Shown: positions 9,292 through 63,731, counted from the first letter of the stretch. The stretch: 64,000 nucleotides of DNA from Candidatus Micrarchaeota archaeon CG1_02_47_40 (GCA_001871475.1 MNVE01000016.1:197343-261342); one strand, 5' to 3'. Numbers and translations are program-made. Notes: generated by a model not told the origin, from the letters alone.

Positions 9292-9297
9292 TGCGAA

Positions 9298-9840: not shown

Positions 9841-9843
9841 GGA

Positions 9844-10458: not shown

Positions 10459-10599
10459 GGGAGCGGAATTCCACCCTACAGCGTTGCAGAAAAGTTCTGC
10501 AACACTTATTGCAAACCAGAAGACGTAGGAGGGTGAGAACTTAGTTGCATTACTTTTCTGGTTTGCAATAATTTGCTTTATAAACTGCTTTTTGCATAA

Positions 10600-10821: not shown

Positions 10822-10830
10822 AGGGGGATT

Positions 10831-11790: not shown

Positions 11791-11806
11791 GGAGAAGGTG
11801 ATTTTC

Positions 11807-12583: not shown

Positions 12584-12631
12584 AATGAACGCAACTTATA
12601 CTATTTTATAATTATCGTTCATTATATATCC

Positions 12632-13866: not shown

Positions 13867-13872
13867 GAGGTT

Positions 13873-15477
13873 TTGCCTATGCCAAAAACGGAAAAAGATA
13901 TTTTTGTCTGCGACACTTCAGTAGTGGTGGATGGAAGGGTAGTTGAGCTTGTTAGGGAAGGGAAAGTGAAGGGAGTAGTAGTAATACCGAATGCTGTTCT
14001 TGCGGAGCTGGAGCATCAGGCAAATGCGGGAAAAGAAACCGGGTTTGCGGGATTGGGGGTTTTGCAGAAATTAAAGGAAATGCAAAAAGAGTTTGAGATA
14101 GAAATACAGATGAGGGGCAGCAGACCGTCTCCCTCGCAGATAGAGTATGCGAAAAGAGGGGAAATTGATGCGGAAATAAGAGGGATGGCTGCACTGCTTG
14201 GGGCAACGCTTATTACAGGGGATACGGTGCAGAAAGAAGTGGCGCTTGTGGAGGGGGTGAAAACACTCTACCTTCACACGCACGAGGTAGCAAAGGATTT
14301 GAGCTTCAAGAAGTATTTCGCTGAAGGGACGATGTCGGTGCATTTGAGGGCAGGCGCGATTCCGATGGCGAAAATAGGAAAGCCGGGAGCTGTGAAGCTT
14401 GTTCCCTGCGGGGAGGGAAAGCTGACTACTGATGATGTAAAGAAGATGGCAACGGAAATAGTGGAGGCAACGGAGAGGAATAAGGAGTATTATTTTGAAA
14501 TAGACAGGAGGGGAGCGGCAGTCATACAGATGGGAAGGTATAGGATAGTGATTACAAAGCCTCCTTTCTCTGATGGGTTTGAAATAACTTTAGTAAGACC
14601 AGTAATGAGCAGGAAAATTGAAGAGTATAAGATGAGTGAGAAACTAAAGGAAAGGCTTTCAAAACAGGCGGAGGGAGTTATAGTGTGCGGCCCGCCCGGA
14701 AGCGGAAAAAGCACCTTTGCGGCTGCGCTTGCGAATTATTACTCCTCCTTGGGAAAGATAGTGAAGACAATGGAATCGCCAAGGGATTTGCAGGTAGGGG
14801 ATGAGATTACGCAGTATGCTCCGCTGGAAGGGAAATTCGAGCTTACAAATGACATAATGCTGCTGGTGCGCCCTGACTATTCCATATATGATGAGATGAG
14901 AAAAACGGATGATTTTGAAGTGTATGCGGATATGAGGATGGCTGGCATTGGATTGGTGGGGGTGTTGCACGCAAACCGCACGATAGATGCTGTGCAGCGC
15001 TTCATAAACCGCATTGACTTGGGAGTGATTCCGCAGGTAGTTGATACGATAATAATGATTAGAGGAGGGGAAGTGGCGCAGGTGTATTCAATGAACTTCA
15101 AGGTGAAGGTGCCAACTGGAATGGTGGAAGAAGATTTGGCGCGCCCTGTAATTGAGGTAAAGGAGTTTGAAACCGGAAAGCTGGAGTATGAAATTTACAA
15201 ATTCGGGGAGGAAACGGTTGTTTTGCCTATTTCGGAGGAGATGGAGAAGGCAAGCGCGCGCGCTTCAGAGCCAATTGATGAGGAGGCAGCTGCGCAAAGG
15301 ATAGAGAAGGCGCTTGGAAGGATTGTAAAGCACGGGTATGAGCTTGAGTTTAGGGGAAGAAAGGCAGTCATACACGTGCACAAGAAGGATATACCAAAAA
15401 TTATCGGGAGAGGCGGAGAGAATATCTCGCGCATTGAAAAGGAAGTAGGAGTAAAAATTGACGTGAAGGAGATATGA
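13873..15477 (+). CDS. PIN domain - P-loop ATPase - KH domain protein (COG1855, PilT-like ATPase)
   Basis: The N-terminal PIN (IFVCDTSVV..D) is followed by a Walker A motif (CGPPGSGKST) and a C-terminal KH domain (IIGRGGENISRIEKEVGVKIDV). Confidence 0.75.
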   Translation: MPMPKTEKDIFVCDTSVVVDGRVVELVREGKVKGVVVIPNAVLAELEHQANAGKETGFAGLGVLQKLKEMQKEFEIEIQMRGSRPSPSQIEYAKRGEIDAEIRGMAALLGATLITGDTVQKEVALVEGVKTLYLHTHEVAKDLSFKKYFAEGTMSVHLRAGAIPMAKIGKPGAVKLVPCGEGKLTTDDVKKMATEIVEATERNKEYYFEIDRRGAAVIQMGRYRIVITKPPFSDGFEITLVRPVMSRKIEEYKMSEKLKERLSKQAEGVIVCGPPGSGKSTFAAALANYYSSLGKIVKTMESPRDLQVGDEITQYAPLEGKFELTNDIMLLVRPDYSIYDEMRKTDDFEVYADMRMAGIGLVGVLHANRTIDAVQRFINRIDLGVIPQVVDTIIMIRGGEVAQVYSMNFKVKVPTGMVEEDLARPVIEVKEFETGKLEYEIYKFGEETVVLPISEEMEKASARASEPIDEEAAAQRIEKALGRIVKHGYELEFRGRKAVIHVHKKDIPKIIGRGGENISRIEKEVGVKIDVKEI

Positions 15478-16070
15478 TAATCAACCTCCGGTCTGATTTT
15501 GAGGATGCTTTTCTTTCCGCAAAGAAAGCGCTTAAGGCAGGGAAGCTGATTATTTACCCTACGGATACGGTTTATGGGATTGGGTGCGATGCTACAAACA
15601 ATGAGGCAGTTGGAAAGGTTTATGAAGCAAAAGGAAGGGGCGAAGATTCTCCACTCTCCGTTGTGATGGCGGATTTGAAAATGATAGGGGAGTATTGCGA
15701 AGTGAGGCAGGTGGATGAAGTGTATATGCACGAGCATCTGCCGGGCCCTTATACTTTCATACTCAAGTGCAAAGAAGGAAAGGAATTGCCCGTATCGCGC
15801 AACGGGAAGATTGGCGTAAGGGTGCCTGACCATTTCTTCTGCATTACCTTGAGCAGGCAGTTGAAAGTGCCTATTGTTTCCACAAGCGCGAATTTGAGCG
15901 GGAAGCCCCCACCTACTTGTGTTGAGGAGATTGACAAGAAAATTGCAGACGCAGTCTCCCTTATTCTGGATGGGGGAAAATGCAAGCACTCAAAGCCCTC
16001 CACTGTTGTTGATTTGGTGGAGAGCAAAATTTTGAGAGCGGGAGCGGAAGGGGGAAGGAATCCTTTTTGA
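15474..16070 (+). CDS. tsaC: L-threonylcarbamoyladenylate synthase (Sua5/YrdC/TsaC family)
   Basis: Contains YPTDTVYGIGCDATN and a later ...SANLSG motif. YrdC domain only, no Sua5 C-terminal domain. Confidence 0.8.
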   Translation: MIINLRSDFEDAFLSAKKALKAGKLIIYPTDTVYGIGCDATNNEAVGKVYEAKGRGEDSPLSVVMADLKMIGEYCEVRQVDEVYMHEHLPGPYTFILKCKEGKELPVSRNGKIGVRVPDHFFCITLSRQLKVPIVSTSANLSGKPPPTCVEEIDKKIADAVSLILDGGKCKHSKPSTVVDLVESKILRAGAEGGRNPF

Positions 16071-46689: not shown

Positions 46690-47186
46690 CCGCAGGTTGC
46701 TGACTGGGGCTTGCATACGTAAGTTGGCGGGCTGGGGCAGCATTTTGTAAGGCTTGGCCTGCCTTGCGGGGGGCAGGGGTCGGGGGTGCATGGGTCCGGA
46801 GGGGCGACTACAGCTTCTTGGCAGGCAGTCGTCCAGCCGCTTCCGTACATTGCCTGCATTACAAATGGCCCGATAACTGAAACAAGTATTCCTATTAACG
46901 CGCCTACCAGCATTGCAGTTGCCCAGACGTTTGCCCTTGCGCGCGTTTCCGCGCCCATCATCTGCCCTCCGGCATAAACCGCTCCTCCTGCAACCACCAT
47001 GAGCATGGAAAGAATGGGGAGGAGATTGGCAAGAAAATCGCAGAGGGAGGCAAATGCCCCGCTGATGTTTGACATCTGGGAAAATGAAAGGGAGAGCATT
47101 GCAAGGAGGAGAAGGAGTGCGGCGGGCTTCATGCAGATAACGAAGCAACGAAAGGTTATTAATTTTTGGAAAGGAGATTTATGCAT
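46680..47186 (-). CDS. hypothetical membrane protein with Cys/Pro-rich C-terminal tail
   Basis: 3-4 TM helices, then PPDPCTPDPCPPQGRPSLTKCCPSPPTYVCKPQSATCGYG. Confidence 0.35.
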   Translation of the reverse strand: MHKSPFQKLITFRCFVICMKPAALLLLLAMLSLSFSQMSNISGAFASLCDFLANLLPILSMLMVVAGGAVYAGGQMMGAETRARANVWATAMLVGALIGILVSVIGPFVMQAMYGSGWTTACQEAVVAPPDPCTPDPCPPQGRPSLTKCCPSPPTYVCKPQSATCGYG

Positions 47187-48165
47187 GGCTTCTACTTACT
47201 CTGATGCGGGGATAGATGTGAAGAAAGCGGTTAGGATACACGAGGCAATGGCAAAGATAATTGCCGGCACTAAAAACGAATTTTGCGAGGGAGAGTTTGG
47301 ACATTATGCAGGAATTGTGAAAATCGGGGAAGAAATGATTGCGATTACAAATGACGGGGTTGGCAGCAAACTGCTTGTTGCACAGAAAATGAAGAAATTT
47401 GACACGGTTGGAATAGACTGCGTGGCGATGGTCGTGAATGATTTGATTTGCATCGGTGCAAAACCGATTGCGCTTGTGGATTATATTGCATTACAAAAAC
47501 AGGATGAAACACTTGTGCTTGAGTTGATGAAGGGGTTGGCGCAGGGGTGCGTGCAGTCTGGCTGCGCAATAGTGGGGGGGGAAACCGCCATTCTGCCTGA
47601 AATTGTGAATGGATTTGATTTGGAGGCAACTTGCATTGGAAGAGTGGAAGGGGGAGTGGTGGATGGGCGTATAGTAAAAGAGGGAGATGCGGTTGTGGGG
47701 CTTGCCTCAAGCGGACTGCATTCAAACGGATATACGCTTGCAAGAAAAGTTTTAAGCATGGAAAAGTGGGGGAAGGAAATGTTAACTCCCGCTACCATTT
47801 ATGTGAAGCCGGTGCTTGAAATGATTAAGGAATGTGAAGTACATGGGCTTGCGAACATAACCGGGGGAGCTTTTTCAAAAATGAGCAGGCTGACAAAAAG
47901 AAGCGGGTGCGGCTTTTTATTGGATGGGGTGCCGACACTCCCTCCGATATTTGCCGAACTGCGCAGAGGAGTGCCAAGCGATTACGAAATGTACCGAACA
48001 TTCAACTGCGGAATAGGGTTTTGCGTGGTGTGTGAAAAGGAAGATGCGAAAAAAGTGATTGCGGTTGCAAAGAAATATGGAATTGGTGCACAAGTAATTG
48101 GGCAGGCGATTGCAAAAAAAGACATTCTCTTGAAAAAAGATGGAAAGGAAATTTCACTCCTCTAA
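47185..48165 (+). CDS. purM: phosphoribosylformylglycinamidine cyclo-ligase (AIR synthetase)
   Basis: MASTYSDAGIDV, GHYAGIVKIG, and DGVGSKLLVAQKMKKFDTVGIDCVAMVVNDL are present. AAGGAGA lies upstream of the internal ATG. Confidence 0.85.
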   Translation: MASTYSDAGIDVKKAVRIHEAMAKIIAGTKNEFCEGEFGHYAGIVKIGEEMIAITNDGVGSKLLVAQKMKKFDTVGIDCVAMVVNDLICIGAKPIALVDYIALQKQDETLVLELMKGLAQGCVQSGCAIVGGETAILPEIVNGFDLEATCIGRVEGGVVDGRIVKEGDAVVGLASSGLHSNGYTLARKVLSMEKWGKEMLTPATIYVKPVLEMIKECEVHGLANITGGAFSKMSRLTKRSGCGFLLDGVPTLPPIFAELRRGVPSDYEMYRTFNCGIGFCVVCEKEDAKKVIAVAKKYGIGAQVIGQAIAKKDILLKKDGKEISLL

Positions 48166-50785: not shown

Positions 50786-52123
50786 TATAGTGCTAAATAC
50801 TGAAAGGTGAATGGTGTTTTAGTAAATAAATGTGGAAAATGGGCTCATGAGTGCTAGATTGATGTTTCCGTTCAAGCCGCATATGTTTGTTGCGATGTTC
50901 ATGTTCCTGTTTATAGTATATGCAGTAATGCAGAATGAATGGAAGGTGCGCGTCCTGATGCTTGTTCCGGTGACTGTGCTTTTTGTGGTGTTTGTAGCCG
51001 CCTTTGCCTGGGGGGTTAGGGAGGTTTCGGCGGAAGCGGTGAGAGAGTATAAGAAGAAGGAGAATGCGAAGGGAAGAGGGATTGCCACAAAAGCTTTATA
51101 AACAGACCGCGCCATAAACACTGCTACCGAATTTTAACGGTAAATGAGGGGCAGAACCTGGTTTTGCCCCCCTGGATGGAATGAAACCCTTAGGGGGTTC
51201 CATCTGCTGTGGAAATCCGAAGCTTTCGGATTTGACTTGCGCTTCAAGTGGAAAAAAAAGACAAGCAGCAAAATAGAATTGCTCCTTAATGCAATTCCCT
51301 TAAGAAATAAGGAAATGAACTTTTGCAACTCCAGTTGATCCTGCTGGAGGATACTGCTATCAGAGTCCGACTAAGCCATGCAAGTCAGCCCGCAACCATT
51401 GCGGACGGCGTAAGGCTCAGTAACACGTAGTCAATCTGCCCTTTGGACGTGGACATCCTCGAGAAATTGAGGTTAACCCGCGATAGGCCATCTATGCTGG
51501 AATGCTTGATGGTTTAAAGGTGCGCGCGAATTGGAGTGCGCACGCCGGAGGATGAGACTGCGGTTGATTAGGTAGTTGGTGAGGTAACGGCTCACCAAGC
51601 CGATAATCAGTAGGGGCGATGGGAGTCGGAGCCCCGAGAAGAGCACTGAGACAAGGGCTCTAGTCCTACGGGATGCAGCAGGCGCGAAACCTCTGCAATG
51701 CGCTAAAGCGTGACAGGGGGACTCTGAGTGGCGGAGAACTTAGTTCTCCGTCTTTTGACAAGCTTAGATGGCTTGTAGAATAAGTGCTGGGTAAGACCAG
51801 TGCCAGCCGCCGCGGTAATACTGGCAGCACAAGTGGTATCCACGAATATTGGGTCTAAAGAGTTCGTAGCTGGCTTGCTAAGTTCACTGTGAAATCTTGG
51901 AGCCTAACTCCAAGGCGTGCAGTGAATACTGGCAGGCTTGAGAGCGGGGGAGGCGTGGAGTACTTACGGGGTAAGGGTAAAAAGGAGAGTATTGAATGCC
52001 GTAATGCGCAATACTTTTCATTATAATCTCGTAATCCTGTAAGGACTCACAGTGGCGAAGGCGCCACGCCAAAACGCGTCTGACAGTGAGGAACGAAGGC
52101 TAGGAGAACAAATCGGATTAGAT

Positions 52124-52837
52124 TTGGAGCTAGGGAAACGCTAATAAATAACAACGGATTGATAGAATTATGAGATTAGAGCGCCGGGTAAGAGACCTCG
52201 TGAGTAAGCAGAAACGAAAGCCGCTTATGAAGGTTAAACTTCCAGTCGAAACAAGCCCAGAACTCTGTAGAGTGCTTGGCATTCTACATGGCGATGGGAA
52301 TATGTCTGGAAGACGAGTTTTGCTAACCGACGAAAACAGGGTGTTCCACAGAACGATACATAAACTGTTTAAAACGGTTTTTGGAATTAGGATGAATCTG
52401 TTTCACGACATAAGAAGAAATTCGTATTACAGTTATACGAAAAGTGTCTTGGTGTATCGTTTTTTGAACGAAATAATGGAAATGCCCTGCGGTCCAGTAA
52501 GACAAAATCTGAAGATTCCGTCTTATATGGAAAAGCTTGGTTTGAAACACCAAGCAGAGTATGTTGGCGGACTCTTTGACGCTGAAGGATGCGTCAAAAC
52601 AAGACAGGCCGAACTCAACCTCTCATCTACTTCAAAGAATATCTTCAAGTTTATTGGAGGGTTTTTGAAGAAGATTGGGGTGACGTACAGTACGTATGAG
52701 AGGAGAAGGCACAAAAATCCGGAATATGAGATATATGTTTATGGAAAAGACGACTTGAAAAAATTTTCAAGATATGTTTCTTTTTTGCATCCGTTGAAAA
52801 TGAAAAAGATGGCGAAATTTCTTTAGCTCCACTAAAA
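52124..52837 (+). mobile_element. 16S rRNA intron 1 (after GGATTAGAT, E. coli ~790 region) encoding a LAGLIDADG homing endonuclease
   Basis: The exon breaks after GGATTAGAT and resumes at ACCCGAGTAGCCC. The intron ends TGGAGCTA...TAGCTCCA are complementary (BHB-like stem). Confidence 0.7.
52170..52826 (+). CDS. LAGLIDADG homing endonuclease (double-motif) encoded in 16S intron 1
   Basis: Motifs LGILHGDGN and VGGLFDAEGCV. 218 aa. Confidence 0.75.
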   Translation: MRLERRVRDLVSKQKRKPLMKVKLPVETSPELCRVLGILHGDGNMSGRRVLLTDENRVFHRTIHKLFKTVFGIRMNLFHDIRRNSYYSYTKSVLVYRFLNEIMEMPCGPVRQNLKIPSYMEKLGLKHQAEYVGGLFDAEGCVKTRQAELNLSSTSKNIFKFIGGFLKKIGVTYSTYERRRHKNPEYEIYVYGKDDLKKFSRYVSFLHPLKMKKMAKFL

Positions 52838-53010
52838 ACCCGAGTAGCCCTAGCAGTAAATGATGCAGACTGTGGTGTTGCGTCAGCCTAGAGCTGGCGC
52901 AGTGCTGTAGCGTAGACGGTGCGAGTTTGGGTAGATGCGGATAAGATGCAGCAAACGCGCACCGGCGGAAGTCTTAAGTCTGCCACCTGGGGAGTACGAT
53001 CGCAAGATTT

Positions 53011-53052
<42 letters not shown>

Positions 53053-53461
53053 GCTGCGGTTCAATTGGATACAACGCCGGGAATATTACCAGAAGAGACG
53101 GCAGAATGATGGCCAGACTGAAGATCTTGCCTGACAAGCCGAGAGGTACTGCACGGCCATCGTCAGCTCGTGGTGTGAACTGTCCCGTTAAGTCGGGAAA
53201 CGAGCGAGACCCTTATGTACTGTTGCCAGCTTTCCTTTGCAGGAAGGCGCACTCTGTACAGACTGCCCGTGTTAAATGGGAGGAGGGAGAGGGCGACGAT
53301 AGGTCAGTATGGTCTGAATCTTCTTGGGCTACACGTGGCTTACAATGGCTGGGACAATGGGCAGCAACTCCGAAAGGAGAAGCGAATCTCACAAACCCAG
53401 CCCAAGTTCGGATTGAGGGCTGGAACTCGCCCTCATGAAGCTGGAATCCCTAGTAATCGCT

Positions 53462-54233
53462 TGTCAACAATCGAGGCAATCTAGCGAAATGTTTATATTG
53501 TTAGCCGCATTTATTCTTGCGGTTAACAGTATGGAAACTAACTGGAAGAAGAATCCCAAATTGCTACAGAAGATAAGGGCATCGTTAGGATTTTCTCAAA
53601 TAAAATTTGCGAGGTTTCTTGGAACGAAGCAAAGCACTTTAAGCGCTCTTGAGCGGGGCGCGATAAAGACGGTTTCTGAAGAAGCCGCCGAGTGCTTTGC
53701 CAAGAGGCTAAAAGGTGTGAAAATTGCATTTATGACTGAAAATGAAATGCAACGGAAACTTTTGCAAATATCGCAAAGAGGAAAGTTCAAGGGAGAATAT
53801 GCAAGAAGTATGGCCCTTAAAGTACATAGTAAAAATGCAGTTGAGAGTGCAAAATCCCAACCTCTTACAAAACAGGAGGAAAGGATAAATACACTTTTGA
53901 AGGAAAGCGGACTGCGCTATGAGGCTCATCCCGCAATTGACGCGGGGGGCATTTCTTTCGTGGCAGATTTTAAGGTAGAAAAAAATAGATGGATGATTCT
54001 TATTGAGGCTAAAGAATTTAGGACGAAATATAGATTGAAAGCGCCTATATGCGAACTTGCATACAAGGCTACGCGGATAAAACGCTTCAATAAGAATGTG
54101 ATGATGGTTGCAGTCGTAAGCGGAAGACTTATGCAATCTGAGAAAAAGATTCTTTCGGATGAGTTTGACGCTGTTTTTGAAGATGAAGGAAAAATATTAG
54201 AATTCGTAAATAGATTGCCTTGAGTGAACTCGA
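53462..54233 (+). mobile_element. 16S rRNA intron 2 (after CCTAGTAATCGC, E. coli ~1350-1360 region); boundaries +/-15 nt
   Basis: The exon sequence ...GAATCCCTAGTAATCGC is interrupted and resumes at ...GCGGTGAATACGTCCC. It encodes a non-LAGLIDADG ORF. Confidence 0.65.
53489..54223 (+). CDS. intron-encoded HTH (XRE-type) plus PD-(D/E)xK-like nuclease-fold protein (putative novel homing endonuclease)
   Basis: HTH_3-like LQKIRASLGFSQIKFARFLGTKQSTLSALERG. The C-terminal AIDAGGISFVADF...WMILIEAKEF gives a D...ExK arrangement. The ORF-track start at 53435 lies in the rRNA exon, so the start was moved to an internal Met. Confidence 0.5.
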   Translation: MFILLAAFILAVNSMETNWKKNPKLLQKIRASLGFSQIKFARFLGTKQSTLSALERGAIKTVSEEAAECFAKRLKGVKIAFMTENEMQRKLLQISQRGKFKGEYARSMALKVHSKNAVESAKSQPLTKQEERINTLLKESGLRYEAHPAIDAGGISFVADFKVEKNRWMILIEAKEFRTKYRLKAPICELAYKATRIKRFNKNVMMVAVVSGRLMQSEKKILSDEFDAVFEDEGKILEFVNRLP

Positions 54234-54400
54234 GCGGTGAATACGTCCCCGCTCCTTGCACACACCGCCCGTCAAATCACCCAAACGAAGTTTTGGTGAG
54301 GCTTTGCTTCTTGGCAGACCCGAACCAATTCGTCGCGAGGGGGGTTAAGTCGTAACAAGGTATCCGTAGGGGAACCTGCGGATAGATCACCTCCAATATA

Positions 54401-54466
54401 TTTTATCTTCGGATAAAATTGAGGAATAACAGCATGCGAAGTGCGCAAAGGAAGCCGATGTTTTTT
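54401..54466 (+). terminator. hairpin (TTTTATC-TTCG-GATAAAA) and oligo-T tract immediately after the 16S 3' end
   Basis: A TTCG tetraloop hairpin at 54401-54418 is followed by TTTTTT at 54461-54466. Confidence 0.4.
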
Positions 54467-54571
54467 ACTGTTCTGTCTATTCCATTACTTGAAGCGCAAA
54501 TTTTGTATTTTTTTATTTTGATTAGCGCAAGCCTTACGTGTTTAAATTAACCTTTACTGCAAAATCCCTTC

Positions 54572-55045
54572 ATGAAAATCAGCTTAACTCCGGAACTCTC
54601 TTACCTGATAGGGTTATGGCAGGCAAGGGGAAGCCAGGAGGGAGTAGGAATTTGCGGAAACAGGAGAGTGTGCGAAATCTTCCTTGAGGAAGCGCTGAAA
54701 ATCGGGATTGCAAAACCGGATAAAATACAGCTTAAGGAGGATAAGATATATTTTTACCATTCGGCTTACCGCGCGTTTTTTGAGGAAGTGCTGAAGGAGA
54801 GGCTTGAGAGGTTTAAGTACAAAAATGAGTTTGCCGCGCAATATTTGGCAGGTGTTTTTGACGGGTGCGGGGGGATTTTGGAGGATGGGAAGGGTGTGTT
54901 TTTTGCTTGCGGAAATAGGGAGGATGAAATGCTTTTGCTTCGCCTTGGGTTTAAGGCAAAAAAAGTCGGGAAGAGGATTATTGTGATTGGAAAGGAGGAG
55001 TTTTTGGGTTTTGTGAGCAAGTATTTGAAATATTTTGAATGGTGA
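54572..55045 (+). CDS. free-standing LAGLIDADG-like protein in the 16S-tRNA spacer (first motif degenerate)
   Basis: The second motif is YLAGVFDGCGGI. The first motif, YLIGLWQARGS, has lost the acidic residue. 157 aa. Confidence 0.5.
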   Translation: MKISLTPELSYLIGLWQARGSQEGVGICGNRRVCEIFLEEALKIGIAKPDKIQLKEDKIYFYHSAYRAFFEEVLKERLERFKYKNEFAAQYLAGVFDGCGGILEDGKGVFFACGNREDEMLLLRLGFKAKKVGKRIIVIGKEEFLGFVSKYLKYFEW

Positions 55046-55326
55046 GAAAATGCAACACCTGATGCGTTTTGATGCTGGTGCGTTCGCAAGGAGAATTGAA
55101 AAGATAGATATTGAAAAGTTGATGTCTTACGAAAATGCGCTTAGGGTGCGGATGAGATTCAGTCTTTCCAAGCCGCTGTCAGCACAGGAGGGAGAGAATG
55201 GGCGGGTAATCGCACGCTGGCGGCTGGTAGAGGAAGAGATTGGAAAAAGAAACGGAAAATGAGCAATTCGTGACAAACTTTTATAAATAAAAAGAAAGAA
55301 AATGTCTTTACAAACAATAGCGATTT

Positions 55327-55389
55327 GCAATGAGGGCTTTGTAGCCAGCTCATTGCAAAAATTTGAAAATCGCTCTGCGCGATTTTCAA
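55327..55389 (+). other. two adjacent perfect hairpins in the rRNA spacer
   Basis: GCAATGAG-(15 nt)-CTCATTGC spans 55327-55356. TTGAAAATCGC-TCTGC-GCGATTTTCAA spans 55363-55389. They are preceded by TTTTATAAATAA at 55280. Confidence 0.5.
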
Positions 55390-55531
55390 ATGAGGTGTAG
55401 AATTATGAACGGCGGGTGTTTTAGCATTAAGCAGAAAGGGTGGTGCGTTTTCTGAAGCGAAAGTAAGGAAGGAAAGCTCTAATTCTGAAAAGTCTTTAAG
55501 GGGAAGGAAGTGTTCTTTGAATGTTGAAGAA

Positions 55532-55672
55532 ATGCAGCAGTTAGTGAATACTGCATGCTCCAAATATTACTCCCTGCGGGAGCTTGGGGAAATGTTCGGG
55601 GTTTCGCGTTCTTCTGTGTGCAGGGCGCTGGAAAGGGCGGAAAGCCTGGGAATTGCCCCGCTTATTCTCTGA
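55532..55672 (+). CDS. 46-aa HTH peptide resembling a resolvase/sigma-r4 C-terminal HTH (possible gene remnant)
   Basis: MQQLVNTACSKYYSLRELGEMFGVSRSSVCRALERAESLGIAPLIL. In-frame stop 12 codons upstream, so this is not part of a longer ORF. Confidence 0.25.
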   Translation: MQQLVNTACSKYYSLRELGEMFGVSRSSVCRALERAESLGIAPLIL

Positions 55673-55958
55673 AATAAAAAAAATGATGTGATGAAGAATG
55701 GCTGAAATGAAGCCAGTAATACGGAAAAACGATTCAGGAATAAATTTCTTCGGCGCGGGACCCGGGGCGAATAGGTTTAGGAGAATCCGGCTGCCCCCGC
55801 CAGATGGGATAATGAAGCTGCCGCAAACCGCGAGTATTGCCAACGCAAAGGCAAATGAAGTGAAAGGAGCGCCATCTGAATGTTTTTACTTCGCGCCCTT
55901 TTGAGGGCGCGGGCAAAACCCTCCCCCTTTATTAACCTGTTTTGACAAAGAATACCAT

Positions 55959-57047
55959 ATGAATAGATTGCATAGATGTGTTGTTTCCATAGGGGGGGCG
56001 GGAAGGGACGGGATTGCCTGGATAAAGAAAATGCCAGCCGTGATTTTTCCTCCATTTCATCCGGCAAACTGGAAAAAACCAAGAAAGGGACGCTTGCCAG
56101 TTATTTCTGCGCCTCTTGCAGAAGATCTCTCTCGCCAAAAACCTGCGCATGTTCCTTTTTTCAGGCATGGCGGCGCCCCTAGAATACTGTCTGAACAGCA
56201 GTTCCTGAAGAACGAACCTTCTCCTTTTGCGGAAGGGCTGGAAAAGCAGGCGGAAGCGTATAATGGACTGGTCTTTGGCATTGCAAGCAGGCTTTGCGAA
56301 GAAAGGGCGGATGAAAAAAAGGAAATTGACGCTCTCCGCATGATTGTAAAGAAGATACGGAGAACCGTCAAGGTTGCGCATGACGCCGGGGAGCCTTTCC
56401 TCTCGGAATCGCTTGAAAGGGGAAATTGGAGCGCGGATTCGCTTGCGTTTCTTCTTTTTGACGTCTGCAGGAGCCTTAGGCTGGAGCCTAGAATGATTGA
56501 CACCCCGAACGGGCTGTTTGTGGCAAACGGAAAATTCGTGATTGACTCGGTTATGCTGCAGGTTATTTCGCGCAAAAATTTTGATGCGGAAAAACGACAC
56601 GTCTGCCGTGAGACTTCGGATGCGGTTGAAATGCAGTATCTTCATCATATGCACATTGCCTACGCAGGGGTTAAGGGCGATTTCTGGGGGGCGGTCAGGG
56701 AAGCCGATAGGGCGGCGAAGCTGAACCCGAACTGCGCCTGCGCGCAACTTGCGAAAGCCATGTTTTACGGGGAGGCGGGGGATTTTCGGAATGCCCTTGC
56801 ATGCTACAACAAGGCGCTGGAAATTGCGCCAGAAGAGGAAACCCTTATTCACGCGCGGGCTGTTTTTTTTGAGAAATTCGGCTGTTTTGAGGATGCGGCA
56901 GGCGGATATATGCGGCTGGCGCGGGCGCATCCGGAAAACTTTTCGTATAAGTTTATGCTTTATTATGCGCTGAAGCAGCTTGAACGCCTGCGCCGGGGGA
57001 GCTCGGATGCGGGCGGGCAAGAGGGGCGGAAGGCGCAGACCGCTTAG
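55959..57047 (+). CDS. hypothetical protein with C-terminal TPR-like repeats in a compositionally atypical (G+C-richer) segment
   Basis: Sequences AKLNPNCACAQLAKAMFYGEAGDFRNALACYNKALEIAPEE and FEKFGCFEDAAGGYMRLARAHPEN are TPR-like. Both strands carry a 362-aa ORF here; the plus strand is the protein-like one. Confidence 0.35.
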   Translation: MNRLHRCVVSIGGAGRDGIAWIKKMPAVIFPPFHPANWKKPRKGRLPVISAPLAEDLSRQKPAHVPFFRHGGAPRILSEQQFLKNEPSPFAEGLEKQAEAYNGLVFGIASRLCEERADEKKEIDALRMIVKKIRRTVKVAHDAGEPFLSESLERGNWSADSLAFLLFDVCRSLRLEPRMIDTPNGLFVANGKFVIDSVMLQVISRKNFDAEKRHVCRETSDAVEMQYLHHMHIAYAGVKGDFWGAVREADRAAKLNPNCACAQLAKAMFYGEAGDFRNALACYNKALEIAPEEETLIHARAVFFEKFGCFEDAAGGYMRLARAHPENFSYKFMLYYALKQLERLRRGSSDAGGQEGRKAQTA

Positions 57048-57086
57048 CTTTCTTTTTTAAACTCTTTTCAACAAAATATAATTAGT

Positions 57087-57223
57087 GGGCTCGTGGCGCA
57101 GCGGTAGCGCGCGTGCTTTGCAGTTGAGCAAGAGACGTCTTCTCAAACAAAAAAGCACGAGGCCGTGGGTTCGCGCCCCTAAAATTTTATTTTGGAGGCG
57201 GCTCAAAAATCCCACCGAGTCCA
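57087..57223 (+). tRNA. tRNA-Ala(UGC) with a canonical 37/38 intron (~30 nt) and a probable second intron in the T-loop (~34 nt)
   Basis: Acceptor GGGCTCG/CGAGTCC (G3:U70 Ala identity pair). D arm GCGC-AGCGGTA-GCGC. Anticodon stem CGTGC/GCACG with loop TTTGCA-[intron]-A. T stem GTGGG/CCCAC with loop TTC-[insert]-AAAT. Discriminator A. No encoded CCA. Confidence 0.55.
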
Positions 57224-57227
57224 CTTT

Positions 57228-57698
57228 TCATATCTTTATCTGATTTCCGCCATTGTCTATCGTGTAGTCTGAGTCGAACTTCTCAATCGCAAAGAGGATT
57301 TTTGCAAGCGTTTCCTTCCTGTTTCCGAATTTTGCCTCCGCGAGCGCATTCCTTATTGCTTCGCACAGCTTGACTATTCTGCCGGCTTCGTTCGCAAAAG
57401 ACGTGTCGGTTTGTGCCAGCTCTTTTTTCAGATTTTCAATTTTCGCCCGCAGTTTTCTTGTTTCTGCAGTTTCTCCGCTTTTTTGAGTGAGTTGCCGTAT
57501 GCGCCCCGGCACGCGGCATTTTCCCCCAACGCCCGTTTGGTGCGGCTCCGGTGCGGGCTTTATGCCGAAACGAATTCTTCTGCTTGTGGTTTCCCCGCCA
57601 GCTGTTTTTTGCGTGGAATGGCTCCATTTGTTATGCGCAGTTAATTTAGTCATGAATATCACCTGTGTTAGATTATGCACAAGCGTATTTATAAGCAT
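57228..57698 (-). CDS. hypothetical coiled-coil protein encoded antisense in the tRNA-23S spacer
   Basis: The C-terminal half (RKLRAKIENLKKELAQTDTSFANEAGRIVKLCEAIRNALAEAKFGN) is protein-like. A TATA-like TTTATAAAC lies ~38 nt upstream of the internal Met at 57698. Confidence 0.25.
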   Translation of the reverse strand: MLINTLVHNLTQVIFMTKLTAHNKWSHSTQKTAGGETTSRRIRFGIKPAPEPHQTGVGGKCRVPGRIRQLTQKSGETAETRKLRAKIENLKKELAQTDTSFANEAGRIVKLCEAIRNALAEAKFGNRKETLAKILFAIEKFDSDYTIDNGGNQIKI

Positions 57699-59912
57699 TG
57701 TCTTTTTGCGGGAAATTGGAGAAACCCCCAAGAAAGGTTTATAAACAAATCTCTGCTTAACATATGCCACCCTTTTGAGCCGGAAAGTTAAAGGAGAGGC
57801 TTAAACATCAGCGTCCCTCGTGAAGGGGTTGCGATGCATGAATTATCACCCCTTAGGGTAGGTAATCTCAAACGGGTTGACGCATCCTGATGTTTTTGGG
57901 AGCGGATTCCAAGAGTATGAAGAAAAGTCGCATTTACAAAGTAGTAGAAGAAAGGATATGATATGTTTGTTACTGCCGGGCAGTGGATAGCTTGGCTTGG
58001 GCAAAATGCGGATCGTGGCAAGCTGCGAAATGCTCGGGGTAGGCGCAGGCAGCCTGTAATCCCGAGGTAATCCGTTTAATACGCGGGGAATCGAAACATC
58101 CTATTACCCGCAGGAAGAGAGAACAATTGTGATTTGGTAAGTAAGGGCGACTGAAAGCCAAAAAGGGCAACCTGAATACCCAACTGTAAGGTTGGGAAGA
58201 TGTGGGGCCGCCAACAACGCAAGTTGTTGGGCTGTGCTCGCAAGAGCACTTAAGTAACATCCGCCGCACTAGGGGAAGCTCCTGAAAAGGGGCGCCAAAG
58301 AGGGTGAAAGCCCCGTACCCGAAAAGCAGGCGGAGAAAGGCACAAAGAGTAGCGTCCATTGAGTATTGGACGCAAATATGGCGGTATCGATCGCCAACCC
58401 TAAACATACCCCAAGACCGATAGCGAAGAAGTAGCGCGAGCGAAAGCTGAAAAGGACCCCGAAAGGGGTGTTAAAAGAACTTGAAACTGTCCGGCTACAG
58501 TTTGATGCGGCATGAAAGCGTTAATATCTCCCGAAGCTACCGACCGAAAGGAAGGGTGCGAGGGGGATTCAGCGGTGTCGCATCCTCCTTCTATAAGCAA
58601 GGGCCAGGGAGTTTCTACCTGCGGCAAGGCGAGAGCCGGAGCGAAAGCGAGTGCGAAAGCGCGAAACAGTCGTTGGTAGCAGACCCGAAGCTGATGTGAG
58701 CTATACGTGGATAGGGCGAAGCCGGCCTGACGGCCGGTGGAGGCCCGCAACCAGTGCTAGTATATTCTGCTTGGGTGATCTACGTATAGGGGTGATAGTC
58801 CAGTCGAACTCAGCAATAGCGGGCTCCCCCCGAAGTATATCTCAGTATAGCGCCGCGGGAGTTGTTGCGCAAGGTAGAGCACTGATCGGAGAGTACGGGC
58901 CCGAGAGGGCTCACTTTCTTGTCAAACTCCGAATTTGCGCAAAACGAAGAACGCGGCAGTAGGCTTCTCTCGGGTAAGCCGAGAGGACTTTACGGGAACA
59001 ACCGGTACCGCGGTTAAGGTCCCAAAATTCTGGTTAAGTGTGACTCTCAAGGGGTCTCCAGTCTAAGACAGCTGGAAGGTAGGCTTAGAAGCAGCCATCC
59101 TTCAAACAACGCGTAATAGCGGACCAGCCGAGATTGCGGACCCCGAAGATGCTCGGGGCTAAATCAGATACCGATACCGCGGAATGGCGCACTGTTAGGT
59201 GCGCGCAATTTGGTAGGGGGGCGAACCGGTCGGGCAGAAGCGCGGGTGTGAACTCGCGTGGACCGGCCGGCTATGAAAATCCTGGTATTAGTAGCAGCAT
59301 ATCCAGGCGAGAATCCTGGACGCCGAAAGTACACGGTTTCCTTGGCCATGTTCTTCAGCCAAGGGTAAGGCGATCCTAAGCACGAGGCTAATTGCCAACT
59401 GTGCAAAAGGGAAACCGGTTAAAATTCCGGTCCCGGATAGATAGGCGCGGCAACGCATGATGCGTTCCTGACGTTTTGGGGTAGGTGCAGTGGAGGAGAC
59501 TCCATTTAAGCAAGATAAGCCTTCGGAGACTCATTGTGAGGAGAAGAAGGCTAAATTTGCGAGCGGCCGCACGGTTGCGCCAAGCCCCGGAGCCCTTGAA
59601 AAGGGAACGCGTAACGATTCTATCCGACCGTACCTAGAACCAGTACAGGTGATACTGGCAGAAAAAGCCAAGGCGTGGCAGGACAACTCTCGTAAGGGAA
59701 CTTGGCAAGTTAGTGGCGTAACTTCGGGATAAGCCATGCCTGCGGGCCTTTGCGGGCCTGCAGGTCTCAGTAACAAGGGGAGACCGACTGTTTACCAAAA
59801 ACACAGGTCATCGCAGAGCCGAAAGGCTAAGTACGATGGCCGATGCCTGCTCACTACTGGTACGTTAAACTCCGGTTCAACGGAGCAAAGCGCCAGCAAA
59901 GAGCGGGGGTAA

Positions 59913-60504
59913 TCGTCAGTTCCAATTTTAAACATCAAATGAGCTTGGTTCCATATGCAGAAGTTTGAGGAGTATTTTATAGGCGCACTTCAAGATGCGT
60001 ACGTCGATGAAAAGCGCAATGAGATTCAGCTGTACCAAAAGAATAAGGAATGGCTCGATTTTATTAATGCCAATCTTAAGAAAGATTACGGCATTACTGG
60101 AAAGATTTTCAAAAGAGACGTTTACTTGCTTAGAAAAAGAAGCAAAGCGTTTGTTTTGAAAATTAAAGAGGCAAAAACTAGAATGAATTCTTTTGGCGCG
60201 GATTTCGTCGCAGGGCTTTTTGATTCGGAAGGTTCTGTTTACCTTTCAACAAAATCAAAAATACCCATCATTGATGTAACGCAATCCGAAAAAGGATTGG
60301 AATATCTTAAGTGTGCGCAAAAAATTCTTATGGAGAATGGGATTGATTCGAAACTGAATGGCCCATATAAACATAAGCATGGAAAACTCCTGCAATATCA
60401 TCTGCGCATATATGGAAATAAAAAATGTGGGATATTTTTTAGGTTAATTCCCATTTATTATAAGAATAAGTTTGAGAAATGCTCATTTTGAACTGACGAC
60501 CCCA
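59913..60504 (+). mobile_element. 23S intron 1 (between GGGGGTAA and ACTCTGACCCTCTTA; E. coli ~1915-1925 region)
   Basis: Flanked by complementary TCGTCAGTT...AACTGACGA. Contains a single-motif LAGLIDADG ORF. Confidence 0.7.
59955..60491 (+). CDS. LAGLIDADG homing endonuclease (single-motif, homodimer type)
   Basis: Motif FVAGLFDSEGSV. 178 aa. Confidence 0.7.
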   Translation: MQKFEEYFIGALQDAYVDEKRNEIQLYQKNKEWLDFINANLKKDYGITGKIFKRDVYLLRKRSKAFVLKIKEAKTRMNSFGADFVAGLFDSEGSVYLSTKSKIPIIDVTQSEKGLEYLKCAQKILMENGIDSKLNGPYKHKHGKLLQYHLRIYGNKKCGIFFRLIPIYYKNKFEKCSF

Positions 60505-60703
60505 CACTCTGACCCTCTTATTTGGCTCTTGCAAGAAATTGCCGGAGCTGATGTGAGATAGGTAGCGTAATACCTCGCCGCTTAATTGGTGGCTTGCATG
60601 AATGGCATAACGCGTCTCCCACTGTCCCTACGAGGGACCTGGTGAACCTACTACTCTGTGAGTATGCAGAGGACTTCTAGGGGGAAACGAAGACCCCGTG
60701 GAG

Positions 60704-61467
60704 TTGGAAACTACTCTCTACCACCGGAAAACTACCGTCTCGGGAGGTTTATAAACAAGGAGAAACGAAAGGGAAAACATATGTTTGAACTTTCTCCCTT
60801 GCTTGCCTACGAGACAGGTGTCCATCTTGGTGACGGAAACTTGACGTACAATAAAAAATGGAACCTTTACAGAATAACTTACGCAGGAAATTCGGAAACG
60901 GATTCCGAATTTTTTGAGTGCGTTCTTCCAAAATTGATTTTCGAAGTTTATGGAAAACGGGTGCGGATTTATCATCCAAAGGGCGAGAAAACCGTTCTTG
61001 TTGTCCTAAACTCAAAGGAAATCGCAAGGTTCAAAATGGATGCGCTTGGGCTTCCTTCAGGAAATAAAAATCAGCTGAAGGAATTTCCAAGGAAGCTTAA
61101 GGAAAAATATCCTGCAGATATTGTACGAGGTTTGGCAGACACTGATTTCTGTCTTTATTTTAAGGATAGGAATAAGGATGGAATTGCCGAGATTCCGATT
61201 ATTGAAGGGTGCTTCTCAAACGAAGCGTTCTGTTCGGAAATCTCGGGGATACTTTTCAGATTGGGGATATTGCATTCTACGCGCAAGGTTGTTTCGCATA
61301 ATAAATATGTGGAACACCGAATACGCGTTGAGGGCAAAGGTCAGTTTTGCAGATGGATGGAAAAAATCGGGTTTTGGAATCCGAAACATCTTGCAAAAGC
61401 AGATGATTATTTTGGGAATTTTCCGGCAGAGTTTTAATTTTTTTAAACCAGTTTCCGACGCGGATAG
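60704..61467 (+). mobile_element. 23S intron 2 (after GAAGACCCCGTGGAG; E. coli ~1950 region)
   Basis: The exon resumes at CTTTACTATAGCCTG. The flanks TTGGAAACT...CCAGTTTCC are complementary. A TATA-like GGTTTATAAACAAGG lies ~25 nt before the HE start. Confidence 0.7.
60781..61437 (+). CDS. LAGLIDADG homing endonuclease (double-motif)
   Basis: Motifs LAYETGVHLGDGN and IVRGLADTDFCL. Start at MFELSPLL; the upstream part of the ORF is rRNA exon. Confidence 0.75.
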   Translation: MFELSPLLAYETGVHLGDGNLTYNKKWNLYRITYAGNSETDSEFFECVLPKLIFEVYGKRVRIYHPKGEKTVLVVLNSKEIARFKMDALGLPSGNKNQLKEFPRKLKEKYPADIVRGLADTDFCLYFKDRNKDGIAEIPIIEGCFSNEAFCSEISGILFRLGILHSTRKVVSHNKYVEHRIRVEGKGQFCRWMEKIGFWNPKHLAKADDYFGNFPAEF

Positions 61468-61631
61468 CTTTACTATAGCCTGCTGTTGAGATACGGTGAT
61501 GGTCGCGGAGCGTAAATGGGAGCCGTTACGCTGCATCTTTCGGGGTGCAGATAGGCGACATTGTAACACCATTCGATCGTTATTGTATTTCTTACCGGAA
61601 GGGACCGCGGCAGGTGGATAGTTTGGCTGGG

Positions 61632-62364
61632 AGTCCGAAGATTTAAGGAAAACAGGAATCAAGCAATGCGTTCTTTCTCACGCCGAGATTCTTGGAACGG
61701 GAGTCGGAAATGCGACTCTCGTCCAGAAATCTGACTTTGGTTGAGAAAATGGAAAGCGAGCGCTTGTCATAAACGCGAAGCCCGTGCGTTGAATGTGAAA
61801 CTCTGATGCCCAAGCTTTCAAAGCAGTTTGAAAGTTGGCTGCGCAGATGAGGATTATAGCATGCGATGTCGATGACTCCGCGCGGATGCGAACGGTCTAT
61901 GGAAATTGAACCGTCGCAGGAGCAGTATGCGCGTAAAAATGCGCATGTAAAAGATTTGGAGAGAAGAATGCTGTTTGGAATTTTGCATTTGGGATGTGTG
62001 CCGTCCGCAAACGGAGCAGTCCTGAATGTTGAAGCTTCCGAAAGCAGTTTTTTTGCGATTGGCACCGAGAAAAACCTCGCTGATTTCGCAGAACCGCAGC
62101 GGTTATAGGAGAAATTTCTTTTTCCGAATTCGCAATTAGTGATGTGCCTGAAATAGTCAAGCATTCCTTCAACAGTATTGGTGAATTGGATGCAGTATGT
62201 CCGTTTTGACTTGTCAAAATAGAGTGAACCGTCTGAAAGAAGCATTGCAAATAGTTGTGCTAAATTTTCGTTCATAATAAAACGAAATGTTTTTTGTTTA
62301 TAAGGGTGCGCAGGGAGTAGAAGTCCGCACCCTCCGATTCCTGCTTACATCTTCGGACCAGCAA
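61632..62364 (+). mobile_element. 23S intron 3 (after GTTTGGCTGGG; E. coli ~2065 region) carrying its HE gene on the opposite strand
   Basis: The exon resumes at GCGGTACATCCTCGATAAGGAAACAAGG. Flanks GTCCGAAGAT...ATCTTCGGAC are complementary. A hairpin GGGTGCG-(15 nt)-CGCACCC lies at 62303-62333. Confidence 0.65.
61643..62275 (-). CDS. LAGLIDADG homing endonuclease (double-motif) encoded antisense to the 23S rRNA
   Basis: Motifs LLSDGSLYF and LRAYCSCDGSIS. 210 aa. Its own TATA (CTTATAAACAA) lies ~28 nt upstream on the minus strand. Confidence 0.7.
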   Translation of the reverse strand: MNENLAQLFAMLLSDGSLYFDKSKRTYCIQFTNTVEGMLDYFRHITNCEFGKRNFSYNRCGSAKSARFFSVPIAKKLLSEASTFRTAPFADGTHPKCKIPNSILLSKSFTCAFLRAYCSCDGSISIDRSHPRGVIDIACYNPHLRSQLSNCFESLGIRVSHSTHGLRVYDKRSLSIFSTKVRFLDESRISDSRSKNLGVRKNALLDSCFP

Positions 62365-62632
62365 GCGGTACATCCTCGATAAGGAAACAAGGATGCCCAA
62401 TGTTCAGCTTAGGTGCGTTAGAAATGCACCGTTAAGGGTAAAGGACAAATGCTGGACTGACTGTGTTCCTAATAGCATGGGACGCAGAGGCGAAAGCCGG
62501 GCCTAACGAACCTTGGCACCCTTTTGATGAGGGTCCAAGCTGTCAGACAAGCTACCCCGGGGGTAATTCCACCGGCGGAGTTTTTTGATTAACTGTCAGT
62601 GGAACTCCATACAGGCTCGTCGCGGGCGAGAG

Positions 62633-62880
62633 ACAAATCTCTCCCGATTTTTAATTTAAGGACGATGCTTAAAGGTGTCTTCTATTCTCTAAAGTATTTT
62701 CTGCATTGATATGCAATAGCAAACCCGGCATTCGGGTTTGCTAGCTGTGCCGCACGAAAAGCGTGCGGCACTAAAAAGAAACATCTGGGATACTAAAGGA
62801 TAGTTGAACCTTTAGGCTAGTGTAAGGTTTTCGATACGAAAACTATATCGTCTGGTTTATGGGAGGCATTTGCTCAAATA
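62633..62880 (+). other. 23S intron 4, ORF-less structured intron (between GCGAGAG and CCCATCGACCCCGCGG; E. coli ~2449 region)
   Basis: About 248 nt with no ORF. Internal hairpins include AAACCCG-GCATT-CGGGTTT and GTGCCGCACG-AAAAG-CGTGCGGCAC. Confidence 0.55.
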
Positions 62881-63000
62881 CCCATCGACCCCGCGGTTTG
62901 GTACATCGCTGTCGGCCTAGGTCATCCTGGCGGTGCAGGAGCCGCCAATGGTTGGGTTGTTCATCCATTAAAGACCTACACGAGCTGGGTTCAGAACGTC

Positions 63001-63731
63001 AAGTTGGGCGTTGCTAGGCCGCAAGGCCTTGATAAATAAAATTGGCTCATATCGGTGAAACCTCGCTTTAAAAATATTGCAGACCGCAATGTTTGCAAGA
63101 AAGCGTGGCAATACCGAGGGAAGGCGAGATTTGTGGATTCAACAATGCTTGCGTATATCGCAGGGTTCCTTGATGGAGATGGCAGTATCTTCTTTCAGAT
63201 AGTCAGAAGAAAGGACTACCGTCGGAAATTCCAGATAAGAAGCAGCGTTGCTTTTTATCAGAAGACGGATTCGTGCCGCATTTTAAAGTGGCTCAAGGGA
63301 AGATTGAAAGCGGGGTATATCCGCCATCGCAAAACAGGAATCAGTGATTATACAATTGTCGAATCAAAAGAGGTGGAAAGGATTCTTTCCATTCTACATC
63401 CGTACGTGAAACTGAAGAAAAGACAGCTTGAACTTGGTTTGAAAATTCTGCGCAAACTCAAAAAATCACAAAGCAATAAGGATTTTCTTGGAGTTTGCAG
63501 GCAAGTTGACAAGTTTAAGCTGTTGAATTATTCCAAGAAAAGGACAGTGACATGTTCGGTCGTAAGCAAATCTTTGCCCCTGTAGAGACTGAGGCAGAAG
63601 TGGTCCTGAAAGGAACACGAAAATGCCGAGAGTCCTGCCAAAGGGCAGGGCTAAGACGCCGATCTCCCATGCAGCAAGCGTGGGATGGTGGTATAGTCCA
63701 TGCCATTCCGAAAGGAATGGATTAAACATGC
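63001..63731 (+). mobile_element. 23S intron 5 at the I-CreI homing site (CAGAACGTC^GCGAGACAGTTCGG; E. coli ~2593)
   Basis: The exon breaks after GGGTTCAGAACGTC and resumes at GCGAGACAGTTCGGT. Confidence 0.75.
63055..63585 (+). CDS. I-CreI-family single-motif LAGLIDADG homing endonuclease
   Basis: MLAYIAGFLDGDGSIFFQI...AGYIRHRKTGISDYTI...LKKRQLELGLKIL...DFLGVCRQVDKFKLLNYSKKRTVT parallels I-CreI (LYLAGFVDGDGSI...GYVRDRGSVSDY...KFLEVCTWVDQIAALNDSKTRKTT). The functional start is probably the internal Met at 63145. Confidence 0.8.
   Translation: MKPRFKNIADRNVCKKAWQYRGKARFVDSTMLAYIAGFLDGDGSIFFQIVRRKDYRRKFQIRSSVAFYQKTDSCRILKWLKGRLKAGYIRHRKTGISDYTIVESKEVERILSILHPYVKLKKRQLELGLKILRKLKKSQSNKDFLGVCRQVDKFKLLNYSKKRTVTCSVVSKSLPL

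Follow-up and report, generated by a model that had tools for sequence, protein, structure and literature searches.

The stretch analysed here (the window; 64,000 nucleotides of Candidatus Micrarchaeota archaeon CG1_02_47_40, GCA_001871475.1, MNVE01000016.1:197343-261342) carries the 16S rRNA, tRNA-Ala and 23S rRNA genes in that order, and the subject of this report is the 2691-nt interval between the first two (54396-57086). On the plus strand the interval holds o157, which encodes a protein of LAGLIDADG fold, a small helix-turn-helix (HTH) open reading frame (ORF) whose leader contains a pair of hairpins, the short conserved ORF o68, and a gene for a protein with TPR repeats (Table 1). A first-pass annotation had grouped these into a 2.7-kb cassette and suggested that it was either a mobile element that had integrated and then decayed, or an island acquired horizontally and now lying in the rRNA spacer. 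The analysis indicates instead that the interval probably belongs to the ordinary chromosome of a lineage of Micrarchaeota whose 16S, tRNA-Ala and 23S genes form separate units with protein genes between them, and that it is probably not an inserted mobile cassette.

Both borders had been placed correctly: 16S ends at 54395, where positions 1381-1478 of the Rfam model align to 54300-54395, and tRNA-Ala starts at 57087. Rfam matches put the start of the archaeal 16S at 51328 and that of 23S at 57959/57974, from where it runs to the end of the window; both rRNA genes far exceed their model lengths because they carry ORF-bearing insertions. The same sequence is present in at least five independent and concordant assemblies, two of which cover 16S through 23S (the 240-kb L001, and L002; L numbers denote the loci compared), and the arrangement is therefore not an assembly artefact. 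When 54300-58050 was scanned with Rfam at E <= 10, the only matches were the rRNA ends, a weak tRNA and two chance snoRNAs, with no group I intron and nothing at the hairpins.

Table 1. Features of the 16S-tRNA-Ala interval and its surroundings (window coordinates).
Feature	Coordinates	Strand	Remarks
Putative 16S promoter, AAAGCTTTATAAACA	51090-51104	+	224 nt upstream of 16S; predicted function
16S processing stem, 5' strand	51237-51275	+	Cofolding
16S 3' trailer	54396-54519	+	Stem 3' strand 54459-54499, then T7 54508-54514 and T4 54516-54519; predicted terminator
TATA-like box of o157, TTTAAATTAA	54541-54550	+	26-27 nt ahead of ATG
o157	54572-55045	+	157 amino acids; LAGLIDADG fold, I-DmoI-like, without canonical catalytic acids
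o75/o70, doubtful ORF	55035/55050-55262	+	75/70 amino acids
Promoter-like element, CAATTCGTGACAAACTTTTATAAATA	55264-55289	+	Conserved in L008, L012 and L093
Pair of perfect hairpins	55324-55391		About 70-nt insertion in the HTH-unit leader
Conserved block of about 50 nt, or 16-codon ORF, MNGGCFSIKQKGWCVF	55405-55455	+	Conserved in L008 and L012
Small HTH ORF	55517-55672	+	51 amino acids from TTG (46 from ATG 55532)
o68, short conserved ORF ahead of the TPR gene	55698-55904	+	68 amino acids; 45% identical over 55 amino acids to an L007 ORF at the same place
TATA-like box of the TPR gene, TTTATTAA	55928-55935	+	27 nt ahead of ATG
Antisense shadow ORF	55932-57020	-	362 codons, in register; not a gene
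TPR gene	55959-57047	+	362 amino acids; possibly inactivated transglutaminase-like N-domain, C-terminal TPR repeats
TATA-like box of tRNA-Ala, TTTTTTAAA	57053-57061	+	30 nt upstream of tRNA-Ala
tRNA-Ala(TGC)	57087-57223	+	Introns 57123-57153 (position 37/38) and 57174-57207 (T-loop); ARAGORN on spliced sequence
Putative 23S promoter, AAAGGTTTATAAACA	57733-57747	+	212 nt upstream of 23S
23S insertion ORF	59955-60491		LAGLIDADG_3
23S insertion ORF	60658-61437		No Pfam match
23S insertion ORF	61643-62275	-	Faint LAGLIDADG_3
23S insertion ORF	63055-63585		LAGLIDADG_1

Each of the three RNA genes has promoter-like sequence of its own. The 15-mer AAAGNTTTATAAACA is found exactly twice in the 64 kb, at 51090 and 57733, against a chance expectation of 0.08. 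On cofolding, the 16S leader (51237-51275) pairs with the trailer (54459-54499): a helix of 13 perfect bp is separated by a 3-nt bulge from one of 4 bp, after which comes a 5-nt bulge, an arrangement similar to a bulge-helix-bulge motif. L008 and L012 retain both the T-run and the trailer elements CTTGAAGCG. The TATA-like boxes ahead of o157 and the TPR gene are conserved among relatives, and their spacing of 26-27 nt from the respective ATG codons implies leaderless mRNAs. In L007 the 50 nt preceding the TPR-gene ATG are approximately 90% identical. The block TTTTTTAAACTCTTTTCA ahead of tRNA-Ala is conserved in L007 and L012, and a pattern scan of metagenomes with the tRNA promoter for further TPR/tRNA-Ala junctions returned the same contig only.

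16S, tRNA-Ala and 23S appear to be separate transcription units: in place of the single promoter of a linked operon, the sequence has a motif copy before 23S, a T-run behind the 16S stem and a tRNA-Ala TATA box. In such an arrangement 16S would be transcribed from its own promoter at 51090 and released at the bulge-helix-bulge-like stem, with transcription stopping at the T-run (54508-54519); the protein genes would use TATA boxes of their own and yield short mRNAs, most of them without leaders, and tRNA-Ala and 23S would have individual promoters at 57053 and 57733. The interval might alternatively be a true internal transcribed spacer (ITS), with 16S, the ORFs, tRNA-Ala and 23S in one precursor and the ORFs as passengers, and the common strand of the spacer ORFs and the rRNA genes would fit this, as would the gene order, which is that of the classical euryarchaeal operon (PMC8997704). 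It is nevertheless very unlikely, given the T7 run right behind the 16S processing stem, the second copy of the rRNA promoter motif before 23S, the conserved TATA boxes before o157, the TPR gene and tRNA-Ala, an opposite-strand ORF of 180 amino acids between tRNA-Ala and 23S, and the large opposite-strand genes in the intervals of relatives.

Unlinked rRNA genes are reported to be common in DPANN archaea (PMC8997704), and the locus, read as separate units, resembles the unlinked genes of Thermoplasma and of many DPANN and Asgard archaea (PMC8997704) in that protein genes separate 16S and 23S and that separate putative promoters and processing helices serve the two rRNAs. It differs in that 16S, tRNA-Ala and 23S are still neighbours, in order, over 3.6 kb; it looks like an expanded operon that is breaking up, and not like genes that are fully dispersed. 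Organisation of this type is already known: what seemed to be an island in an rRNA operon can largely be accounted for by the ordinary state of a DPANN rRNA locus that has partly come apart, and this matters for the annotation of operons, ITS regions and insertions in metagenome-assembled archaeal genomes.

The most interesting content of the region is o157, which represents an undescribed family of LAGLIDADG fold that has no Pfam model and is present in at least 98 Micrarchaeota species. With o157 as query, no LAGLIDADG match was obtained in Pfam or NCBIfam at E <= 1, nor any LAGLIDADG chain in a sequence-profile search of the PDB. The AlphaFold model (pLDDT 96) has two alpha-beta-beta-alpha-beta-beta-alpha halves in the expected order, and the top Foldseek matches are I-DmoI, E-DreI and PI-SceI (E = 5e-5, TM 0.6-0.68); the fold assigned in the first-pass annotation is therefore right. 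That annotation had also called the gene degenerate, with motif 1 having lost its acidic residue. The acid is indeed missing, as it is in all 83 family members examined, but the gene is not decaying. Motif 1 of the family is [ILV]-I-G-[LF]-W-[RK]-K-x-R and motif 2 is L-A-G-x-F-D-[ASG]-x-G, and catalytic position 8 is acidic in neither motif of any member (0/83), being occupied by R, A, S, N, C or T in motif 1 and by V, A, C, S, T, I or M in motif 2. The missing acid is therefore a family trait and not a sign of decay in this genome, and the family lacks canonical catalytic acids in both motifs. Invariant among the 83 are D97 (position 6 of motif 2), W16, G24, G26 and N85, while an acidic residue before G24 (E/D23) is present in 73.

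The closest relative of o157, in L093, is 92% identical in nucleotide sequence from the o157 TATA box to the stop codon (window 54539-55041, L093 672-1174). Of the 35 differences, 25 are third-position changes; the differing codons comprise 20 synonymous and 11 non-synonymous changes; o157 is under purifying selection. The protein database contains 49 homologues at 42-94% identity, those with a named source all being from Micrarchaeota or Anstonellales, and nearly all of the species genomes with relatives, at least 98 in number, are labelled Micrarchaeota. The protein resembles I-DmoI in being a monomer with two motifs and the same two halves, and in having some homologues inside 16S insertions, and a homing-endonuclease ancestry of the gene is supported. 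It differs from enzymes of the I-DmoI type in having no Pfam LAGLIDADG match, a non-acidic position 8 and a basic motif 1 (GLW-R/K-K-x-R), and most copies of the family are free-standing beside purM and apparently vertically inherited across the phylum. Bacterial WhiA and the organellar intron maturases likewise have a LAGLIDADG scaffold without catalytic acids, are under purifying selection and serve the host as nucleic-acid-binding proteins; o157 lacks the extra HTH domain of WhiA, and no group I intron partner was found for it. The o157 protein probably no longer cuts DNA, and it appears to be a domesticated nucleic-acid-binding protein and not a decaying homing endonuclease.

The genomic context of the family was surveyed in 86 loci. 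In 47 of these the o157 homologue is divergent from purM, with approximately 700 nt between them; in three it lies within a 16S insertion (L016, L034 and L067), in three (the window and L008/L009) 160-180 nt separate it from the end of 16S, in three it is 3-8 kb behind 16S (L012, L022 and L044), and the sequence compared in the remaining 30 has neither purM nor 16S. A neighbour-joining tree places all 16S-linked copies in one clade. In L008, whose 16S is approximately 86-97% identical to that of the window across aligned blocks, the 16S trailer, TATA box and o157 gene are laid out as in the window and the protein is 59% identical; the adjacency of 16S and o157 is therefore old. The sites of the gene by clade (inside 16S, behind 16S, beside purM) offer a natural series in which to study the passage from intron endonuclease to host gene. 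If the domesticated, non-cutting protein had kept a part in the biology of rRNA genes or pre-rRNA, such as the binding of rDNA or of insertion-bearing pre-rRNA, this would explain the physical tie of one clade to 16S, either inside an insertion or right behind the predicted terminator, but this is a tentative idea and unlikely to be correct. The three copies within 16S (L016 10001-10462, L034 10001-10456 and L067 10001-10468) sit in insertions of approximately 560-660 nt in compact 16S-23S operons, the 16S-23S spacers of which measure approximately 330-1300 nt, and no group I introns were found around these intron-borne homologues. The window also has purM, at 46999-48165 and 6.4 kb upstream of o157, with a 469-amino-acid ORF, a PhoU-family gene and 16S intervening.

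These data also bear on whether o157 and its promoter could be an active, free-standing homing-endonuclease cassette that moves itself and targets rDNA or adjacent sites. The I-DmoI-like fold, the homologues inside 16S insertions, the retention of E/D23-G24 in 73 of 83 members and of D97 in all would suit such an element, as would the fact that the 92% identity to L093 spans exactly the promoter and the ORF. Both edges of this identity look like break points, because neutral flanks should still align at a divergence of about 20 synonymous changes in 157 codons. Against this, neither motif ever has an acid at position 8, homology with L093 resumes downstream of o157 at the HTH promoter, so that on this side the two loci correspond, and few genes of the window match the host in codon usage as well as o157 does (z = +1.4). 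Furthermore, the gene occurs once per locus set in at least 98 species, and the 47 purM-syntenic loci together with the clade-wise locations look like vertical inheritance. An active cassette is accordingly judged unlikely.

The next unit downstream is the HTH ORF with its promoter-like element, which includes the TATA-like sequence TTTTATAAATA at 55279-55289. The gene follows the o157 homologue in L008, L012 and L093, as far as the contigs reach. In L008 and L012 the ORFs that follow the o157 homologue are about 100 amino acids long, and their C-terminal parts share 60-65% identity with the HTH product of the window. Judging from these comparisons, the HTH gene, its conserved promoter and its leader are part of the conserved neighbourhood of o157. 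The 46-amino-acid peptide first noticed here had been called resolvase-like; the ORF is present, but its HTH matches in Pfam are sub-threshold and generic (HTH_23, E = 3.4e-5; GntR; HTH_50), and a homology search with the peptide gave no candidates. The conserved block in the leader can be read as a 16-codon ORF (MNGGCF...) that ends at TGA in both the window and L012, and the HTH frame, which is +1 relative to it, is open from 55409 and has no canonical start before 55517. A leader peptide, an RNA element or an arrangement for frameshifting or reinitiation might account for the block and the HTH frame.

The two perfect hairpins reported downstream of a TATA box are also there, at 55324-55359 (11-bp stem) and 55361-55391 (13-bp stem), with folding z-scores of about -4 on either strand. 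They are missing at the corresponding place in L093, L008 and L012, and in L093 ...AGCGA is followed at once by GGTGCAGAATTAT. This makes the pair an insertion of approximately 70 nt specific to the window lineage and, on this comparison, a recent small palindromic one. Neither hairpin has a second copy in the window. At least four perfect hairpins lie directly behind the 3' end of 23S (L001 18100-18250, equivalent to window positions 64058-64205), several of which have TTTGAAA/TTTCAAA arms like those of spacer hairpin 2; these may be a family of small palindromic elements or 3'-end structures. Between o157 and the HTH promoter, o75/o70 has no homologue in any locus compared and no Pfam or PHROG match; it is doubtful, and was rejected as a gene on account of the other sequence in its place in L093 and its atypical codons (z = -1.55). 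An imperfect 24-nt direct repeat (83%) links the o157 stop/o75 start (55033-55057) and the start of the HTH ORF (55515-55539), and is probably due to chance.

The remainder of the interval is occupied by o68 and the TPR gene, and in L007 the same order is found: o68 homologue, conserved promoter, TPR gene, conserved tRNA promoter and tRNA-Ala. The TPR protein, for which NCBI has an entry of 100% identity, matches TPR_1 at E = 2.9e-5, under the Pfam cut-off, while its L007 orthologue (P0002), about 50% identical and the only close relative in 5.8 billion clusters, passes several TPR cut-offs, with TPR_9 as its best TPR match. Helical hairpins extend over residues 222-350 of the model, for which a fold search returns TPR structures. 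For the N-terminal 244 residues, a search of 1.8 billion representatives yielded four remote relatives, and three of them share the layout of N-domain followed by TPR repeats. Transglut_core2 (PF13369) is the sole match for four of the five N-domains, always sub-threshold (best E = 0.0066), and the Cys and His of the remote relatives are Ser and Gly in the window protein. For the N-domain fold, Foldseek gave TPR matches only and a PDB profile search was negative. The order of a putative N-terminal transglutaminase-like core and TPR repeats is that of SirB1/COG2912 (Transglut_core2 + TPR_9), from which the window protein differs in its sub-threshold N-domain matches, in the replacement of Cys/His by Ser/Gly and in the recovery of the TPR part only by fold search. 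This suggests a protein composed of an inactivated transglutaminase-like domain and TPR repeats, and hence a protein-binding adaptor.

Both strands are open for more than 1 kb across the TPR gene, as had been observed, over 362 codons each. The antisense ORF is open because TTA, CTA and TCA codons are absent from the sense ORF, where 8.3 would be expected at the pooled rate of 2.3% (P about 2e-4). This absence, and an antisense frame that is open for 298 codons in L007 too, might be taken as signs of a real overlapping gene. Identity to L007 by sense codon position, at 0.65/0.68/0.51, is a sense-coding pattern, and the plus strand therefore codes; protein identity is 48% in sense and 37% in antisense, the codon usage of the antisense ORF is atypical (z = -2.0), and it has no family match. 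Moreover, the rate of TTA, CTA and TCA ranges from 0.5 to 5.8% among genes, with other genes of the window down to 0.5-1%, and antisense runs of 170-290 open codons occur elsewhere in the window. A second gene on this strand is thus extremely improbable; it was rejected on the codon-position pattern and codon usage, and the open antisense frame of 1 kb is explained by codon choice in the sense gene.

The TPR gene was also the basis for the claim of foreign composition. It does lie in G+C-richer DNA, but the rise is modest (0.524 against 0.471 ± 0.024 for segments of equal size, z = 2.26) and within the range of other genes, several ordinary ones reaching 0.51-0.52, and the spacer as a whole has a G+C content of 0.4675 against 0.470 for the window. 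Codon usage gives no support to a foreign origin, being typical for the TPR gene (z = -0.05) as for o157, whereas ORFs in the rRNA insertions have z = -1.3 to -1.5. A search of 50900-58000 for the direct repeats or att-like duplications proposed at 54395 and 57086 found none pairing these positions; no integrase, recombinase or transposase turned up when the spacer ORFs were scanned against Pfam, NCBIfam and PHROGs, PHROGs gave no match to a family of known function, and blastn against phage DNA gave no match.

Relatives show which parts of the interval are stable. The order 16S, o157, tRNA-Ala recurs in L012, L022 and L044. In L012, the nearest relative represented by a long contig, the 16S-23S interval spans 11 kb (4646-15905) and keeps 16S, o157, HTH, tRNA-Ala and 23S in order, with defence-like cargo between these anchors (AbiEii, RelA/SpoT and Schlafen/AlbA_2-type genes); in L022 and L044 an opposite-strand HEAT-repeat gene lies between o157 and tRNA-Ala. 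The interval is plastic, and variable content around conserved anchors means that the junctions act as points of insertion or rearrangement. A single decayed element or acquired island could draw on the LAGLIDADG fold, which is typical of mobile introns, on the weak resemblance of the HTH peptide to transposase-type HTH domains, on the G+C of the TPR ORF, on the near absence of relatives of the o68/TPR module from protein databases (two close and four remote among 1.8 billion representative proteins), and on the defence-type cargo of L012. Such an origin for the whole block is hardly probable when there are no flanking repeats, integrase, transposase, informative PHROG or phage DNA match, when o157 and the TPR gene are typical in codon usage where rRNA-intron ORFs are not, when syntenic orthologues of every module exist in relatives whose proteins have diverged by 40-50%, and when o157 is under purifying selection. 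The single cassette of the first-pass annotation is thus not supported, in view of shared gene content in relatives, typical codons and missing element signatures, and what survives of the mobile-element idea is the homing-endonuclease ancestry of o157, the plasticity of the interval and the recent insertion of the hairpin pair.

Some observations weigh against the interpretation as ordinary chromosomal DNA with resident genes. The promoters, terminator and processing sites are predictions from sequence only. The o68/TPR module, although it is syntenic in L007 as o157 and the HTH gene are elsewhere, is known only from the window lineage and L007, and L012, L022 and L044 carry other genes in its place; it may be an old lineage-specific gain. 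Only 0.7% of segments are as G+C-rich as the TPR ORF (maximum 0.543). The L093 flank directly upstream of the o157 promoter is unrelated to that of the window, and the conserved part of the HTH ORF reaches upstream of its first canonical start codon, so that this gene may be truncated here or expressed unusually. Lastly, the homologues within 16S insertions carry the same non-canonical motifs, so that o157 may still have nuclease activity.

tRNA-Ala is the sole tRNA identified within the window. Unspliced, it scores 22.9 bits against the Rfam tRNA model, under the cut-off, and ARAGORN reports no tRNA at all in the unspliced 64 kb; excision of 57123-57153 and 57174-57207 yields a perfect tRNA-Ala(TGC) cloverleaf with G3:U70 (ARAGORN). 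That a two-intron gene is overlooked in this way points to a gap in tRNA finding. Multi-intron archaeal tRNA genes are known mainly from Thermoproteales, and the present gene is like them in combining the canonical intron at 37/38 with a non-canonical one in the T-loop, and differs in belonging to a DPANN lineage. The L007 gene (1709-1870) has an identical mature sequence with introns at the same two sites, of which the T-loop intron is 94% identical and the anticodon-loop intron wholly different (31 nt in the window, 57 in L007); two-intron tRNA-Ala genes are also present in L012 (12032-12305) and L022 (12040-12225).

Between tRNA-Ala and the 23S promoter, the minus-strand ORF of 180 amino acids (57228-57770; 141-167 amino acids in public annotations) has no homologue in the fetched loci, and Pfam gave one weak coiled-coil-like match. 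The 23S gene contains at least four ORF-bearing insertions across 59955-63585. Group I introns have been reported for Micrarchaeota rRNA of Crystal Geyser genomes (PMC6125680), and none was detected in the 23S insertions of the window at the Rfam gathering threshold. A second insertion in 16S (approximately 53441-54223) carries an ORF of 262 amino acids (53435-54223) that is not LAGLIDADG and matches the XRE-type HTH_3 (Pfam E = 9e-7); a weak relative of it (26% identity) sits within the 16S of L034.

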